From the sequence record MK903281.1: DNA of 39,263 nt, one strand, 5' to 3'. The stretch's first letter is position 1; each line of letters begins with the position of its first letter. Below the pieces are notes generated by a model that did not search any database, was not told the origin of the DNA, and worked only from the letters and a program-made list of their open reading frames with translations. The DNA comes from Escherichia phage Penshu1. Below, in pieces: positions 19,640 through 39,226 of this stretch. The position numbers were made by a program, and so were the translations under genes.

Positions 19640-20524
19640 ATGTCTCAATCAGTTTATGCCGAGTTCGGCGTTAGCTCTAATGCAGTCACTGGTTCCGTTG
19701 AGGACCTGAACGAACACCAGAAGTCTATGCTTGAACAGGACGTAGCTGTTCGTGATGGCGACGACGCTATTACCTTCAAGCAACTGGAAGCTGAAAGTGA
19801 AGAGGCGACCGAAGAAGACGAGAACGTAGAAGAGACTGAAGGTGAAGAAGACCACGAGTCAGATGACGAAGAGTCTGAGACCGATGGTGAGCAGCCTGAG
19901 TTCATCGAACTGGGTGATGCACCGAAAGAGCTGACTGAAAGTGTCACCGCTCTGGATGAGAACGAAGCTGCATTCGACGACATGGTGTCTTCTGCTGTGG
20001 AAGCTGGCAAGGTCACTGCTGATGAAATTACCTCTATCAAGGCTGAATACGCCAAGGACGGTAAGCTGTCTGACGCATCCTACGCTAAGTTGCAGGAAGC
20101 AGGTTACACCAAGCGTTTCGTAGATTCGTTTGTCCGTGGTCAGGAAGCACTGGCTGAACAGTATGCTGCTGGAGTGGTTCGCTACGCTGGTGGAGCTGAA
20201 CAGTTTAATCGCATCCTGTCACACCTTGAGTCCAACGACCCGTCAACTCGTGAAGCACTGGAAGCTGCTATCGTTCGTAAGGACATTGCGACTACCAAAG
20301 CTCTGCTGAATCTGGCTGGCAAGACTCTGGGTAAAGCTGTGGGTGTTAAACCTCAGCGTACCATCACCGCCCAGGCTAAACCTGTGGTCGCACCTAAGGC
20401 TCCTCAGACCGAAGCATTCAGCTCCAAGGCTGACATGATTAAGGCTATGAGTGACCCGCGATACCTGCGTGACGCTAAGTACACGATGGAAGTTCGCGCT
20501 AAGGTAGCTGCCTCAAGCCTGTAG
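19640..20524 (+). CDS. Capsid assembly (scaffolding) protein (T7 gene 9 homologue), 294 aa
   Basis: Start moved to ATG 19640 (AAGGAG RBS); acidic protein with VAVRDGDDAI and C-terminal IKAMSDPRY as in T7 gp9. Confidence 0.9.
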   Translation: MSQSVYAEFGVSSNAVTGSVEDLNEHQKSMLEQDVAVRDGDDAITFKQLEAESEEATEEDENVEETEGEEDHESDDEESETDGEQPEFIELGDAPKELTESVTALDENEAAFDDMVSSAVEAGKVTADEITSIKAEYAKDGKLSDASYAKLQEAGYTKRFVDSFVRGQEALAEQYAAGVVRYAGGAEQFNRILSHLESNDPSTREALEAAIVRKDIATTKALLNLAGKTLGKAVGVKPQRTITAQAKPVVAPKAPQTEAFSSKADMIKAMSDPRYLRDAKYTMEVRAKVAASSL

Positions 20525-20526
20525 GA

Positions 20527-20548
20527 CTAAACTATCACTATAGGGAGA
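20527..20548 (+). promoter_or_regulatory. Phage RNAP promoter for the capsid gene (phi10-like, full consensus)
   Basis: CTAAACTATCACTATAGGGAGA, +1 G at 20543, followed by a 108-nt leader. Confidence 0.8.
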
Positions 20549-21831: not shown

Positions 21832-21868
21832 CCCCTTGGGTGCCTTCGGGTGCTTGAGGGGTTTTTTT
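21832..21868 (+). terminator. T-phi-like transcription terminator
   Basis: G-U-rich 13-bp stem (CCCCTTGGGTGCC / GGGTGCTTGAGGGG) closed by a UUCG tetraloop, then seven T residues, immediately after the 10B stop. Confidence 0.75.
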
Positions 21869-21878
21869 CGGAGGATTA

Positions 21879-22001
21879 ATGAAGATATGCGTAGGATGCC
21901 ACACGGAGAAGGACTTGAGGTCTTTCACGCCAAATGGCAGGACATGTAAGGGTACACAGAAATACGAGGCGTGCTTTGTCAGAGGTGCAACTATGCCATA
22001 G
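21879..22001 (+). pseudogene. Probable remnant of an Endo VII/HNH-type homing endonuclease gene (N-terminal Cys-motif fragment, 40 codons)
   Basis: ATG with GGAGGA RBS; MKICVGCHTEKDLRSFTPNGRTCKGT...C shares the CxxCxxEK...F.P...C pattern with the N-terminus of the intact Endo VII-like ORF at 25760; the catalytic half is missing. Confidence 0.4.
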
Positions 22002-22067
22002 GACTCCTAAGTGAGAATCCAGAGCATATTGCAAACGCTATACACTACCTTAAAGGAGAGGAGACTT

Positions 22068-22634
22068 ATGGCTCAATACATTCCACTGAATGCTAACGAT
22101 GACTTAGATGCCATCAACGATATGTTAGCTGCTATCGGTGAACCAGCAGTCCTACAGCTTGACGAGGGGAACGCTGACGTCTCGAACGCTCAACGTATCC
22201 TGCATCGTGTCAATCGTCAGGTCCAAGCTAAAGGCTGGAACTTTAACATCAACGAAGCTGCTGTCCTGACACCTGATGTCCAAGACAATAGGATTCGATT
22301 CTTGCCGTCATACCTCCGTGTAATGACCGCTGGGGCCACCAGCTACTACAGCAACATGGGTGGATACCTGTACGACCTATCCACTCAGTCAACCACTTTC
22401 ACCGACCCTATCACGGTAGAGCTTGTGGAGATGAAGCCATTCTCCGAGATGCCTGTGGTATTCAGGGACTACATCGTCACTAAAGCTAGCCGTGAGTTCA
22501 ACGCTAAGTTCTTCGGTAGCCCAGAGTCTGAACTGTACCTTCGTGAGCAGGAAGCAGAACTCTATCAGCAGGTTATGGAGTACGAGATGGACACTGGTCG
22601 CTACAACATGATGTCTGACATCGGGAGGGACTAA
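22068..22634 (+). CDS. Tail tubular protein A (T7 gene 11 homologue), 188 aa
   Basis: Start moved to ATG 22068 (AAAGGAGAGGAG RBS); KGWNFNINE, YIVTKASREFN and FFGSPE match T7 gp11. Confidence 0.9.
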   Translation: MAQYIPLNANDDLDAINDMLAAIGEPAVLQLDEGNADVSNAQRILHRVNRQVQAKGWNFNINEAAVLTPDVQDNRIRFLPSYLRVMTAGATSYYSNMGGYLYDLSTQSTTFTDPITVELVEMKPFSEMPVVFRDYIVTKASREFNAKFFGSPESELYLREQEAELYQQVMEYEMDTGRYNMMSDIGRD

Positions 22635-22861
22635 TGGCTATTCACAACCTGAAGATTCACCGCCAGCACTTTGGTCCGGTACAGCTAGGTCTAAAGACAG
22701 CAGAGCTGAGACTTAACGACCGGGACTTTAAGGTTGGCGACTGGCTTATCCTGAATGAGTGGGACAACGGGTATACTGGACAACAGGTAGCGCGTAAGGT
22801 TGTCCACATTGCTGACGTTGGTGCCATCTCTGAAGGATACGTCCTAATGAGTATGATTTAA
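22634..22861 (+). CDS. ASCH/DUF3850-like small protein, 75 aa, inserted between tail tubular genes
   Basis: HNLKIHRQHFGPVQLGLKTAELRLNDRDFKVGDWLILNEW...YTGQ follows the DUF3850 pattern (LKxxxxxFxxVxxGxKTxExRxNDRxxxVGDxLxLxE...YTG); T7 has no gene between 11 and 12. Confidence 0.6.
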   Translation: MAIHNLKIHRQHFGPVQLGLKTAELRLNDRDFKVGDWLILNEWDNGYTGQQVARKVVHIADVGAISEGYVLMSMI

Positions 22862-22870
22862 GGAGGGCCT

Positions 22871-25228
22871 ATGCCACTAATTACTCAATCAATCAAGAAC
22901 CTTAAAGGTGGCATTAGCCAGCAGCCTGATATACTGAGGTTCTCAGACCAAGGCGAGGCACAGGTTAACTGCTGGTCATCAGAGAGTGATGGCCTCCAGA
23001 AGCGCCCACCTACAGTCTTCAAGCGACGTCTTAACATCGACGTTGGGAGTAACCCTAAGTTCCACCTGATTAACCGTGACGAGCATGAGCAGTATTACAC
23101 CGTGTTCAATGGGTCCAACATTCAGGTAGTTGACTTGAGTGGTAATCAATACTCAGTGTCAGGTGCGGTAGACTACGTTAAGTCCTCCAACCCACGAGAT
23201 GACATCCGTGTCGTTACCGTGGCAGATTATACGTTCGTCGTTAACCGTAAGGTTGTCGTCAAAGGTGGAAGCGAGAAGTCACACTCTGGTTATAACCGCA
23301 AAGCACGAGCTTTAATTAACCTTCGTGGGGGACAGTATGGTCGCACCCTTAAGGTGGGAATCAACGGTGGCGTTAAGGTCTCGCATAAGCTACCAGCAGG
23401 TAATGATGCCGAGAATGACCCACCTAAGGTGGACGCTCAAGCCATTGGTGCAGCTCTGAGAGACCTTCTTGTTACTGCCTATCCTACCTTCACGTTTGAC
23501 CTTGGGTCTGGCTTCCTGCTAATCACAGCTCCTTCAGGGACCAACATTAACTCAGTGGAGACGGAGGATGGCTACGCTAACCAGCTAATAAGCCCAGTCC
23601 TAGACACTGTGCAAACAATCTCTAAACTACCTCTTGCGGCTCCTAATGGGTATATCATTAAGATTCAAGGTGAGACAAACAGTAGCGCCGATGAATACTA
23701 CGTGATGTATGACTCCAACACTAAGACGTGGAAGGAGACAGTGGAGCCGGGAGTTGTCACTGGGTTCGATGTCACCACAATGCCACATGCTCTGGTCAGA
23801 AAGTCTGATGGCTCCTTTGAGTTCAAGACTCTGGATTGGTCCAAGCGTGGTGCTGGTAACGATGACACAAACCCTATGCCTAGCTTCGTGGATGCTACGA
23901 TAAATGATGTGTTCTTCTACAGGAACAGGCTTGGGTTCTTGTCGGGTGAGAACGTAATAATGAGCCGTTCAGCCAGCTACTTTGCGTTCTTCCCTAAGAG
24001 TGTGGCGACACTGAGTGATGATGACCCTATTGATGTAGCTGTAAGTCACCCTCGAATCTCAATCCTTAAGTATGCCGTTCCGTTTAGCGAGCAGCTACTA
24101 CTTTGGTCAGATGAGGTGCAGTTCGTGATGACAAGCTCGGGGGTCCTTACCGCGAAGTCTATCCAGCTTGATGTAGGCTCAGAGTTTGCCTTAGGAGATA
24201 ATGCCCGACCGTTCGCTGTAGGACGCTCAGTCTTCTTCTCAGCACCTCGTGGGTCATTCACCAGCATTAAGCGATACTTCGCTGTAGCAGATGTGTCTGA
24301 CGTGAAGGATGCCGATGATACCACTGGTCACGTACTGTCCTATATCCCTAACGGGGTGTTTGACATTCATGGGACAGGGACCGAGAACTACATCTGCGTC
24401 AACTCTACAGGTGCATACAACCGAATCTACATCTACAAGTTCTTGTTTAAGGACGGCGTACAGCTTCAAGCCTCTTGGTCGCACTGGGAGTTCCCTAAAG
24501 CTGATAAGATTCTGGCGTCTGCGTCGATTGGCTCTACCATGTTCATTGTTCGTCAGCACCAAGGCGGCGTGGACCTTGAGCACCTTAAGTTCATCAAGGA
24601 GGCAACTGACTTTCCGTTAGAGCCATATAGACTCCACGTTGACTCCAAGGTGTCTATGGTAATACCAATTGGCTCATACAACGCTGACACCTATAAGACT
24701 ACGGTTGACATTGGTTCTGCTTATGGTGGAAACGCTCCGTCTCCCGGTCGGTACTATCTTATTGACAGTCAGGGTTCCTACGTGGACCTTGGTGAATTGA
24801 CAGACATCTCAACTGTGGCTATACTAAATGGCGATTGGTCAGGACGTACAGTGTTCATCGGACGGTCTTATCTGATGTCCTACAAGTTCTCACGGTTCCT
24901 GATTAAGATTGAAGACGAGAGTGGCACTCAGTCTGAAGACACTGGACGTCTACAACTTCGTCGGGCTTGGGTCAACTACAAGGACACTGGCGCTCTTAGA
25001 CTCATTGTCAGAAACGGTGAGCGGGAGTTCGTTAACACCTTTAATGGGTACACCCTTGGTCAGCAAACCATCGGGACTACCAACATTGGAGATGGTCAGT
25101 ATCGCTTCGCTATGAATGGTAACGCATTAACCACGAGTCTAACCTTAGAGTCGGATTATCCTACCCCAGTGTCCATCGTTGGCTGTGGCTGGGAGGCGTC
25201 ATACGCTAAGAAAGCTCGTTCCGTCTAA
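22871..25228 (+). CDS. Tail tubular protein B (T7 gene 12 homologue), 785 aa
   Basis: Collinear identity to T7 gp12 (NLKGGISQQPDILR, HLINRDEHEQYY, MPHALVR, GRLQLRRAWVNY, IVGCGWE). Confidence 0.95.
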   Translation: MPLITQSIKNLKGGISQQPDILRFSDQGEAQVNCWSSESDGLQKRPPTVFKRRLNIDVGSNPKFHLINRDEHEQYYTVFNGSNIQVVDLSGNQYSVSGAVDYVKSSNPRDDIRVVTVADYTFVVNRKVVVKGGSEKSHSGYNRKARALINLRGGQYGRTLKVGINGGVKVSHKLPAGNDAENDPPKVDAQAIGAALRDLLVTAYPTFTFDLGSGFLLITAPSGTNINSVETEDGYANQLISPVLDTVQTISKLPLAAPNGYIIKIQGETNSSADEYYVMYDSNTKTWKETVEPGVVTGFDVTTMPHALVRKSDGSFEFKTLDWSKRGAGNDDTNPMPSFVDATINDVFFYRNRLGFLSGENVIMSRSASYFAFFPKSVATLSDDDPIDVAVSHPRISILKYAVPFSEQLLLWSDEVQFVMTSSGVLTAKSIQLDVGSEFALGDNARPFAVGRSVFFSAPRGSFTSIKRYFAVADVSDVKDADDTTGHVLSYIPNGVFDIHGTGTENYICVNSTGAYNRIYIYKFLFKDGVQLQASWSHWEFPKADKILASASIGSTMFIVRQHQGGVDLEHLKFIKEATDFPLEPYRLHVDSKVSMVIPIGSYNADTYKTTVDIGSAYGGNAPSPGRYYLIDSQGSYVDLGELTDISTVAILNGDWSGRTVFIGRSYLMSYKFSRFLIKIEDESGTQSEDTGRLQLRRAWVNYKDTGALRLIVRNGEREFVNTFNGYTLGQQTIGTTNIGDGQYRFAMNGNALTTSLTLESDYPTPVSIVGCGWEASYAKKARSV

Positions 25229-25235
25229 CTTATTG

Positions 25236-25285
25236 AAGGGCCTATAGATTTACCTTAACTATCACTATAGGGACTATAGGCCCTT
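25236..25285 (+). promoter_or_regulatory. Phage RNAP promoter (phi13-like, CTTAACTATCACTATAGGGACT) nested inside a perfect 12-bp inverted repeat
   Basis: Promoter at 25254-25275 with +1 G at 25270; AAGGGCCTATAG (25236-25247) is the exact reverse complement of CTATAGGCCCTT (25274-25285). Confidence 0.65.
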
Positions 25286-25304: not shown

Positions 25305-25763
25305 ATGTATATTCGCAAGGCTGCGGAACAGGATGTCCACTACTTTCTGTGGCATCTTTCAGAAGATGATGTTAATGAGTGCAAAGCAAACTACGGGTCA
25401 ACCGTGGGTCTCTCTGAAAGACTGCTTAAGCACCTATCTCCGTCATCTGTGGTTTTAACGAACGGTGTAGGTGAAGTGTTTGCCTATGGTGGAAACCAAG
25501 GGGATAACGTATGGTTCTTGACTTCCGGTCTGGTCTACAAGCTGGGGCCTAAAGAGAAGCGAGAGTTCATAAAGCGTATCTCTGAGTACAGGGACTTAAT
25601 GTTAGACCAATACGGGACCATCTGGAACTACGTGTGGTCAGGCAATAAGTCTCACATTAAATTCTTGAAGTTGCTTGGGGCTAAGTTCCATGATGATTGG
25701 ACTGTAAGTCCGGTAACTGGTGAGCGTTTTCAACTATTCACTATCTCTAAGGAGCAAAGATGA
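25305..25763 (+). CDS. Gene 13-position protein (internal virion/assembly protein homologue by synteny), 152 aa
   Basis: ORF with AAGGAG RBS immediately downstream of the phi13-like promoter; function assigned by position only. Confidence 0.55.
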   Translation: MYIRKAAEQDVHYFLWHLSEDDVNECKANYGSTVGLSERLLKHLSPSSVVLTNGVGEVFAYGGNQGDNVWFLTSGLVYKLGPKEKREFIKRISEYRDLMLDQYGTIWNYVWSGNKSHIKFLKLLGAKFHDDWTVSPVTGERFQLFTISKEQR

Positions 25764-26146
25764 CCAAGGTTTGTACAGTCTGTAAGATTGAGAAGCCTCG
25801 CTCTGCGTTCTCCCCACGGAAGGACTCAAAGTGTGGTATCCGTTCGGCCTGTAAGTTGTGCCACAATGGTCGAAGCCATAAGAACAAAGGATACGAAAAG
25901 TATCACCTAACTCAGGACGAGTACGATTCAATCCTCAGGTCTCAGGACGGAGTGTGCGCTATATGCAAAACTTCAGGACCTAGCCGAGGGCTATGCGTGG
26001 ACCACTGCCATGACTCCGGTAAGGTGCGTGGTATTCTGTGCCACACCTGCAACCTTAAGCTGACACGTAGAAACTATCCGTCCACCTGCGACAATTTCGA
26101 CGAGAAGGCTGCTGAGTATCTGGCTGGTAGCCGGAAGGGGGATTAG
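25760..26146 (+). CDS. Endonuclease VII-like (His-Me finger / HNH superfamily) putative homing endonuclease, 128 aa
   Basis: GVCAICKTSGPSRGLCVDHCHDSGKVRGILCHTCNLKL matches the T4 Endo VII core (CLICQ...HLDHDH...GKVRGLLCNLCN); N-terminal CxxC...C...C zinc motif; inserted between genes 13 and 14. Confidence 0.8.
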   Translation: MTKVCTVCKIEKPRSAFSPRKDSKCGIRSACKLCHNGRSHKNKGYEKYHLTQDEYDSILRSQDGVCAICKTSGPSRGLCVDHCHDSGKVRGILCHTCNLKLTRRNYPSTCDNFDEKAAEYLAGSRKGD

Positions 26147-26173: not shown

Positions 26174-26737
26174 ATGGGTGTCATGGCTGTAGCCGGGGCC
26201 ACTATGTCCGCGTCCCAACAGGCCAAGGCAGAGGGAGCTGCTATTGACGCTCAGAACCGACAGGCTCAGGAGATGATTAAGCAGATGAACTACTCCGACG
26301 CCAACCTGAAGATGCAAGAGCGAGACCTTAAGAATCAGCAGGTCGCTGAGCTGACCGAGACGACTCTGAATGGTATCCGCAATCAGGGAATGGTCCGTGC
26401 AGCAGTGGCTGAGTCCGGTCTGGAAGGAAACTCCATGAACCGCATTGAGCGCTCAGTGGAAGGCGACACCGTGAAAGAACGTGCTGGCATCACCGAAAGT
26501 TACGACCGCGACTATGCGACTATCTTCGGGAACCGTATCGCCAACATTGAGAACACCAAGTCTGCTATCCGTGGTCAAGGTAAAATCATCAAGACCAGCC
26601 CACTAGCTCATGCACTTAATGTTGCTAACGCCGGGATGCAGGGATACGCTGCTGGTGAGTCAATCTCTGGGGCATCAAGCTCTGGGGGTGCTGCACCGAT
26701 TAGTGCTGCTAAAGGCACACCTACAGGTCATAGCTAA
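26174..26737 (+). CDS. Internal virion protein (T7 gene 14 homologue), 187 aa
   Basis: Collinear similarity to T7 gp14 (SGLEGNSMNRIER, YDRDYATIFG, C-terminal AAKGTPTG); weak RBS, probably displaced by the upstream endonuclease insertion. Confidence 0.8.
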   Translation: MGVMAVAGATMSASQQAKAEGAAIDAQNRQAQEMIKQMNYSDANLKMQERDLKNQQVAELTETTLNGIRNQGMVRAAVAESGLEGNSMNRIERSVEGDTVKERAGITESYDRDYATIFGNRIANIENTKSAIRGQGKIIKTSPLAHALNVANAGMQGYAAGESISGASSSGGAAPISAAKGTPTGHS

Positions 26738-39026: not shown

Positions 39027-39185
39027 CGCAATCATGGTAACGATTCATGAGCGGAAGACCTAAGGTCAGTTCATAGCTAACGCTACTCTACTGACCTTAG
39101 CTACTGTAGTCAAGGACTTTAGGTAACACCTTAATAGAAGCTCACTTAGGGTCATCCTACTTATTGGTCTATCCTAGTGTCGCCT

Positions 39186-39226
39186 GACCTACGGTCCTTG
39201 ACCTACAGTGGCTGTGGCCTACAGTA
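39186..39226. repeat. Right-end CCTAC(A/G)GT short direct repeats (three copies)
   Basis: CCTACGGT at 39188, CCTACAGT at 39202 and 39217; same motif as the left-end array, as expected for repeats flanking T7-like terminal repeats. Confidence 0.6.

Follow-up and report, generated by a model that had tools for sequence, protein, structure and literature searches.

Introduction

The best-described relatives of the small phage protein analyzed here are ASCH proteins. Escherichia coli YqfB hydrolyses N4-acetylcytidine using K21, T24 and R26, which are essential, while E74, H70 and Y89 of its C-terminal part contribute; at 103 aa it counted, when described in 2020, as the smallest of the monomeric amidohydrolases (PMC6972931). 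In the GKER-type ASCH proteins a Lys and a Glu form the essential dyad, and 19 of 19 tested ASCH proteins, a set that included neither a phage protein nor a DUF3850 protein, deacetylated tRNA ac4C in vitro (bioRxiv 10.64898/2026.02.27.708502). Modified bases are the predicted ligands of ASCH domains, for which links to N6-adenine methylases recur (PMC4738411), and an ASCH protein is part of nearly every (PIN)-GNAT-EVE operon (PMC7641849). Within the DUF3850 family itself, prophages are enriched in ParB-CTPase-DUF3850 fusion proteins, which bind CTP. A literature search on DUF3850 returned no paper that gives the family a function, and none was found when "activating signal cointegrator" was combined with tail tubular protein.

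We analyzed a DUF3850 gene in the genome of Escherichia phage Penshu1 (hereafter the window, i.e., the whole stretch of 39,263 nucleotides). The window holds a complete genome of about 39.3 kb, of the Kayfunavirus type (K1F-like, T7 group) and ordinary for its kind; about 90% of the first 25 kb aligns at 92-93% identity with phages such as pO91, YZ1 and Mt1B1_P3. The initial annotation had singled out an ORF between the two tail tubular genes as an unexpected ASCH/DUF3850-like insertion in a structural operon. The explanation that we favor for this locus taken as a whole, with a probability of roughly 0.55, is an expressed, dispensable Kayfunavirus accessory gene whose product has an ASCH-type pocket for a base or nucleotide.

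A DUF3850 gene overlapping the end of gene 11

The features of the tail operon and its surroundings are as follows.

20515-20546: promoter-family repeat before gene 10
21843..21870, plus strand: T-phi-like intrinsic terminator after gene 10
22071..22634, plus strand: gene 11, tail tubular protein A or gatekeeper (tblastn to annotated tail tubular protein A, 100% coverage; Pfam Tube on homologues)
22620..22636, plus strand: translational coupling site, in which the final gene 11 codons GGG AGG GAC TAA provide the Shine-Dalgarno sequence GGGAGGG, followed by TAATG
22634..22861, plus strand: DUF3850/ASCH-fold ORF, stop included (75 aa; Pfam, PHROG and PDB matches)
22857..22873, plus strand: 3' end of a 237-bp insert, with a new Shine-Dalgarno sequence and ATG for gene 12 (AAGGAGGGCCTATG)
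22871..25228, plus strand: gene 12, tail tubular protein B or nozzle
25252..25271, plus strand: phage RNA-polymerase promoter (family CTTAACTATCACTATAGG; repeat family D1-D3) ahead of gene 13, marking the end of the 11-ORF-12 unit
2661, 5738, 7383, 8247, 16326, 19535, 20515, 25252, 32912 and 38655, plus strand: promoter-like sites of the repeat family

The 75-aa ORF with a DUF3850-like pattern that had been read at 22634-22861 is borne out by the ORF list, Pfam, PHROG and the solved structure 3IUW. Its product is MAIHNLKIHRQHFGPVQLGLKTAELRLNDRDFKVGDWLILNEWDNGYTGQQVARKVVHIADVGAISEGYVLMSMI (75 codons and a stop). Gene 11 ends at 22634, where one base is common to its TAA and to the ATG of the ORF (GGGAGGGACTAATGGCT), and the overlap of start and stop as TAATG is thus present in the sequence as described. 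The Pfam DUF3850 profile (PF12961) scores 72 bits against a cut-off of 22.9 (E 4.7e-20) and aligns residues 3-73 with profile positions 1-76 of 77, i.e., the whole domain. The Pfam ASCH profile (PF04266) also scores above its cut-off (26.2 bits against 21.2, E 1.3e-5), in an alignment that reaches only profile positions 2-62 of 103, the C-terminal helical part being absent. The protein matches PHROG 986, which carries the label RNA-binding protein (E 2.8e-35), and the sequence of PDB 3IUW (E 1.7e-11, and 1.1e-24 with the family profile). A search of NCBIfam with the 75-aa protein gave no match. The profile scores are far beyond chance and make a chance origin of the ORF untenable. Profile search, the sequence search against solved structures and fold comparison all support the assignment to DUF3850/ASCH that the initial annotation had proposed: the profile score, the signature residues and the 3IUW fold place the protein in DUF3850 (PF12961), and of the features of the wider ASCH superfamily (PF04266; PUA-like) it has the octapeptide but not the full-length domain. 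We consider it almost certain that this is a real DUF3850/ASCH accessory gene.

Mapping of the promoter family and of terminators in the window revealed neither a promoter nor a terminator between genes 11 and 12. The promoter-like repeat family has about 10 sites in the window, with the core CT[A/T]AACTATCACTATAGG[G/A]A. The anatomy of the operon indicates that gene 11, the ORF and gene 12 would be transcribed late by terminator read-through, as in T7. Phage RNA polymerase would read through the T-phi-like terminator late to give a transcript of all three genes, and ribosomes finishing gene 11 would go on to translate the ORF, for which the closing codons of gene 11 offer the Shine-Dalgarno sequence GGGAGGG and TAATG the overlapping start. 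Since the ORF would be translated by gene 11 ribosomes, its product is expected to be a late protein made in modest amounts, roughly like those of gp11. Gene 12 starts at 22871, 10 nt past the stop of the ORF, and is preceded by a Shine-Dalgarno sequence of its own (TAAGGAGGGCCTATG). The proposal of an accessory gene within the late structural operon is therefore supported, both by the lack of either phage signal in the 11/12 interval and by the coupling of the start to the gene 11 stop. At the RNA level, an Rfam search of the whole window gave no match, and the fold of the insert region (z = -2.2) is not compelling as an RNA element.

The codons at the end of gene 11 follow the arrangement of the junction. 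All carriers of the ORF have GGG AGG GAC there, and ORF-less genomes with a 14-16 nt spacer have GGT CGA GAC. The penultimate Gly-Arg of gene 11 (22626-22631 in the window) is encoded as GGG-AGG wherever the downstream gene starts at an overlapping ATG. AGG is a rare Arg codon in E. coli. The choice of codons at 22626-22631 thus appears to be dictated by their function as a Shine-Dalgarno sequence.

Other parts of the window also hold additional ORFs and repeats. Between gene 13 (25305-25763) and gene 14 (26174-26737), which overlap directly in K1F unlike in the window, a 128-aa Cys-rich ORF on the plus strand (25760-26146) matches Pfam Endonuclease_7 (E 9.4e-18) and probably encodes a homing endonuclease of the free-standing kind. 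The plus strand also has two short ORFs, out of frame, between the T-phi-like terminator and gene 11 (21879-22096); the second matches the C-terminal end of Endonuclease_7 at an E value of 7.7e-5, just under the cut-off, and the pair resembles what is left of a further, disrupted homing endonuclease of the Endo VII type. Most relatives align only from about 22049-22067 onward, so that sharing of this stretch is limited. Short repeated units containing ACCTACAGT are found near both genome ends (200-255 and 39185-39210; repeat family D8), and presumably belong to the region of terminal repeats or concatemer junctions in this T7-like genome.

The 11/12 junction in related phages

Genes 11 and 12 are directly adjacent in T7, as its annotation confirms, and likewise in K1F. 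The placement of the ORF, which had been called unexpected, is so relative to T7 but not within Kayfunavirus, where its presence is the majority state. Comparison of the junction across relatives found the ORF there in most Kayfunavirus-like genomes. By tblastn, about 154 of about 217 related GenBank genomes (about 70%) have it, counting phage records with at least 80% identity to the ORF over records with a gp11 of at least 80% identity; among 24 related viral contigs, a DUF3850 ORF occupies the 11/12 junction in 13 and is missing in 11. Public annotations of the Kayfunavirus orthologues call them hypothetical, RNA-binding, DUF3850 or "activating signal cointegrator" proteins. As an object the ORF is already known, near-identical genes being annotated in more than 150 public genomes, some of them as DUF3850. 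Alleles with as little as 60-69% aa identity, including that of Pectobacterium phage LET1, lie between the Tube (gp11) and nozzle (gp12) genes and keep the overlap of stop and start. Compared with divergent alleles, the ORF has a dN/dS of 0.07-0.23, which indicates purifying selection.

Alignment of the window to K1F, the type species of Kayfunavirus, shows the additional DNA as one clean block of 237 bp. This block directly follows a shared GGGAGGGACTAATG, and its end is a similar AGGAGGGCCTATG; an imperfect repeat of ribosome-binding site plus ATG thus stands at both of its bounds. K1F and one contig of our set (L086) do not have the ORF, yet their gp11 is 100% and their gp12 97% identical to those of the window, and a neighbor-joining tree of gp11 plus gp12 places both deep inside the clade of ORF carriers. 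Both still have the GGG-AGG-GAC codons, whereas more distant ORF-less genomes have GGT-CGA-GAC and a separate Shine-Dalgarno sequence. The simplest reading of these alignments would be a precise secondary deletion of the ORF in the K1F lineage, for which the imperfect direct repeat (AAGGAGGGCCTATG and the upstream GGGAGGGACTAATG) was likely the substrate. Because these two genomes are nested among carriers and have no ORF, the gene is dispensable for a functional tail and virion. We regard the gene as very probably non-structural and dispensable.

Some variation at the junction is of interest in its own right. In 12 closely related carriers (loci L087-L101), the cassette differs on average at 3.1% of nucleotides, compared with 5.7-6.8% in genes 11 and 12, and its dN/dS is above that of the flanking genes. 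In another contig (L004), gene 11 is near-identical to that of the window (dS 0.2), and the ORF and gene 12 are very divergent (dS >1.6). These patterns suggest recombination breakpoints at the borders of the cassette and possibly its recent horizontal spread. A CR44b-like Kayfunavirus contig has a 44%-identical DUF3850 allele at the junction (L108:4055-4292, …GIKTCDLRPSIPEIKAGDW…), in which G-x-K-x-x-D-x-R is kept (Lys and Arg remain and Asp replaces Glu) but N-D-R, invariant otherwise, is gone; this allele would be either decaying or changed in function. In Hafnia phage yong1 (L116:2326-2766) and Enterobacter phage B1 (ORF41; PMC12785254), gene 12 is separated from the DUF3850 gene by an extra ORF of 146-158 aa, whose annotation is endonuclease in yong1 and hypothetical protein in B1. 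Such extra ORFs in some Kayfunaviruses mark the 11/12 junction as a recurrent insertion site.

A homing endonuclease or mobile cassette was considered as an identity for the DUF3850 ORF and rejected. Pfam gives only DUF3850/ASCH for the 75-aa protein and no nuclease domain (HNH, Endo VII, GIY-YIG or LAGLIDADG), and the junction endonuclease ORFs of yong1 and B1 are separate genes.

Conserved residues, fold and family context

Within the ASCH/PUA-like superfamily, the protein belongs to family DUF3850 and is a minimal form with a single barrel. The ASCH octapeptide, generally G-x-K-x-x-[E/T/S]-x-R and here of the form GxKxxExR, corresponds to G19-L-K21-T-A-E24-L-R26; after it comes the DUF3850 motif N28-D29-R30. 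Among 135 proteins that each represent a cluster at 50% identity, K21, E24, D29, R30, G35 and E42 are invariant (135/135), H4, K7, R26, N28 and D36 are conserved in at least 132, and Y69 in at least 127. The protein of the window has all signature residues of the family, i.e., H4, K7, K21, E24, R26, N28-D29-R30, G35-D36, E42 and Y69. Position 13, F in the window, is F or Y in 135/135 and could correspond to Tyr14 of TthASCH. An AlphaFold2 model built from an alignment of 63 diverse homologues has a mean pLDDT of 97.5. In fold comparison the best structural matches were all ASCH proteins, while the hub matches reflect generic barrel similarity; a fold search of BFVD matched only uncharacterised phage DUF3850/ASCH proteins. 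The chain ends directly after the last barrel strand. In HMM alignment, K21, E24 and R26 fall on K21, T24 and R26 of YqfB, and the alignment with YqfB stops at about residue 53. From the combination of the ASCH Lys-Glu-Arg motif with the N-D-R motif we infer a pocket for a base or nucleotide. With a pI of 6.9 and a net charge of about 0, the protein is ill matched to generic polyanion binding.

DUF3850 is a large family, with 15,246 clusters at 50% identity matching the profile (E <= 1e-3). Many members are multi-domain, their fused regions being mostly unannotated; Pfam scans of these proteins gave only DUF551, DUF7415 or nothing and are uninformative on function. We surveyed 80 viral contigs with homologues by clustering the neighboring genes and scanning representatives against Pfam, and found SSB, DnaB helicase, D12-class Dam methylase, NinB, NinG, DUF1064, YopX, gpA and integrase, among which the D12-class Dam methylase is a recurrent neighbor. 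In lambdoid phages the DUF3850 gene lies in the nin region between the replication genes and Q, beside NinB, NinG and RusA, and in P2 the early operon closes with Orf91, which comes after gpA and beside tin/old. Elsewhere, DUF3850 thus travels with early DNA-metabolism accessory genes and not with structural modules. The site in the tail operon is specific to Kayfunavirus, and location there says little about function.

Discussion

The main finding of this study is that the ORF between genes 11 and 12 is a genuine member of DUF3850, under purifying selection, present in most Kayfunaviruses and dispensable for the tail. As to what its product does, we propose a soluble, near-neutral protein that would not be part of the virion. 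Its conserved polar pocket would be composed of the ASCH octapeptide (Lys21, Glu24 and Arg26) together with His4, Lys7, Asn28-Asp29-Arg30, Asp36 and Glu42. This pocket would bind a cytosine-type base or nucleotide, either free or flipped out of RNA or DNA, and would hydrolyse or tightly bind an N4-amide-type modification, thereby adjusting the nucleic-acid or nucleotide chemistry of host or phage. N4-acyl-cytosine chemistry is the likeliest here because characterised ASCH proteins use their Lys and Glu/Thr (with Arg in most) to hydrolyse the N4-acyl group of cytidine, as a free nucleoside or within tRNA. Assigning N4-acyl-cytidine amidohydrolase activity to the 75-aa protein specifically is a tentative extension by analogy, and on balance we doubt it. 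Because the C-terminal helical part of YqfB and TthASCH is missing, the pocket may be incomplete unless the protein dimerises or has a partner, and because N-D-R has no counterpart in characterised ASCH enzymes, the chemistry could differ. ac4C is scarce in E. coli, where it is essentially confined to C34 of tRNA-Met. No gain for a lytic phage from removing it is evident, and the neighbors and fusions found elsewhere (Dam methylase, ParB-CTPase) would point to DNA or CTP rather than tRNA.

Several other readings have to be weighed against this one. The protein might be a reader without catalytic activity: a small module of the PUA-like type that acts by occupancy (e.g., masking, recruiting or regulating) once bound to RNA, to ssDNA or to a modified base, for instance m6A or a modified cytosine. 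The predicted binding of modified bases by ASCH domains and their link to N6-adenine methylases (PMC4738411), the recurrence of a Dam methylase as a neighbor, and the absence from the 75-aa protein of the C-terminal elements that complete the YqfB active site would all suit such a role, which is also roughly what the label of PHROG 986 implies. That label is an inherited prediction, however, a net charge of about 0 is ill-suited to backbone binding, and absolute conservation of Lys, Glu, Arg, Asp, Arg and Glu in very divergent members fits catalysis better than it fits a reader with an aromatic cage, which leaves this reading unlikely. A role in anti-defence overlaps with the enzymatic model that we prefer: the protein would reverse or intercept a modification or signal imposed by the host, such as acetylation by GNAT-type toxin/defence modules with genomic links to ASCH proteins, or a cytidine-derived nucleotide. 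Selection driven by host range would then explain the patchy distribution of the ORF, which is polymorphic for presence or absence among near-isogenic phages and forms a cassette less diverged than its flanks with recombination breakpoints at its borders. P2 Orf91 adjoins the tin/old conversion genes, (PIN)-GNAT-EVE operons almost always come with an ASCH protein (PMC7641849), and the prophage-enriched ParB-CTPase-DUF3850 fusions bind CTP. Nevertheless, PADLOC models give only an insignificant partial match (best E 0.0064, 14.6 bits), and expression from a late tail operon is poor timing against early defences unless virions carry the protein or its targets are abortive systems that act late; we therefore judge anti-defence improbable as the function of this gene.

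Two further readings would take the gene out of nucleic-acid chemistry altogether. Its position between two tail tube genes and its translational coupling to gene 11 could denote a tail assembly factor or minor virion protein working with gp11 and gp12, but the same tail, with identical gp11, is built without the ORF by K1F and by about 30% of relatives, and absence from T7, K1F and 11 of 24 close relatives is not what characterizes a virion or tail protein of the T7 group. Homologues elsewhere reside in replication/recombination regions and in bacterial chromosomes, and the structural matches described above lead to ASCH proteins and not to hubs. Mass spectrometry of phage B1 virions (eight gel bands) did not report the protein, which is a weak point because gp11 and gp12 were missed too. 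Taken together, these observations make a tail role very improbable. Even less credence is due to a spurious or decaying ORF, the functionless remnant of a mobile element, although operon junctions are hot spots for homing-endonuclease insertions and the CR44b-like lineage (L108) has a degenerate allele that has lost N-D-R. The reading frame is intact, all family-invariant residues are kept, dN/dS is 0.07-0.23, and position and coupling are conserved in alleles down to 60% identity; these conservation data essentially refute it. The preferred reading thus remains an accessory gene with a base or nucleotide pocket. A bolder version of it, which we regard as a long shot, is that the DUF3850 mini-ASCH protein might be a phage "eraser" of an N4-acyl (or related amide) cytosine mark, whether carried by host tRNA or by nucleic acid that a GNAT-type toxin or defence module of the host has modified. 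If this were true, it would represent a new class of counter-defence or translation-reprogramming enzyme, in 75 residues, far below the 103 aa of YqfB, and would provide a function for a family of more than 15,000 sequence clusters across phages and prophages.

For the window itself these results are mostly housekeeping, since the ORF is a correct gene call that is already annotated in most sequenced Kayfunavirus genomes. The wider value lies in the DUF3850 family, which is very large, enriched in phages and prophages, and has an enzyme-like set of invariant polar residues. Kayfunaviruses provide a natural isogenic test bed, in which K1F does without the gene and close relatives with identical gp11 carry it, and the recent finding that ASCH proteins deacetylate ac4C makes a biochemical hypothesis for DUF3850 directly testable.

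Comparison with known ASCH systems

The closest counterparts are the Kayfunavirus orthologues of Escherichia phages ST31, vB_EcoP_F, PE3-1, JSS1 and FFK3 and of the Enterococcus phage EFA-1 record, which are 75 aa long and 92-97% identical in aa sequence, sit at the 11/12 junction as in the window, their start overlapping the gene 11 stop, and show no material difference from the window. The DUF3850 structure PDB 3IUW comes from structural genomics and is that of Enterococcus faecalis NP_814290, a bacterial or prophage protein named "activating signal cointegrator"; our searches found no biochemical data on it. P2 Orf91 and the lambdoid nin-region genes (40-58% identity) also encode DUF3850 proteins that are small, stand-alone or short-tailed, and non-essential accessories. 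They are expressed with early replication/recombination genes, whereas the ORF of the window is in a late tail operon, and Orf91 has 109 aa with a C-terminal extension compared with 75 aa here. The ParB-CTPase-DUF3850 proteins of prophages have the same, phage-enriched domain fused to a CTP-binding ParB fold and encoded beside parA; unlike in these fusions, the DUF3850 domain of the window stands alone, in a genome region with neither ParA nor ParB.

The comparison with characterised ASCH enzymes highlights both similarities and differences. E. coli YqfB (ASCH; PDB 1TE7/9KYF) is 17% identical to the protein of the window and has Thr24 as its nucleophile, compared with Glu24 here. It needs His70, Glu74 and Tyr89 from a C-terminal helical region that has no equivalent in the 75-aa protein, which therefore has neither the Thr/Ser at position 6 of the octapeptide nor the three C-terminal residues typical of YqfB. 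The GKER-type proteins, i.e., T. thermophilus TthASCH (2DP9), human EOLA1, the TRIP4 ASCH domain and Z. mobilis ZmASCH (5GUQ), are larger (120-160 aa), with helical additions and no N-D-R, and Tyr81 of TthASCH, supplied by the C-terminal part, may have no counterpart here. ZmASCH is reportedly a ribonuclease specific for ssRNA. What the protein of the window does share with the GKER type is the Lys-Glu dyad: K21 and E24 are both present, and both are conserved in 135/135 representatives of the family.
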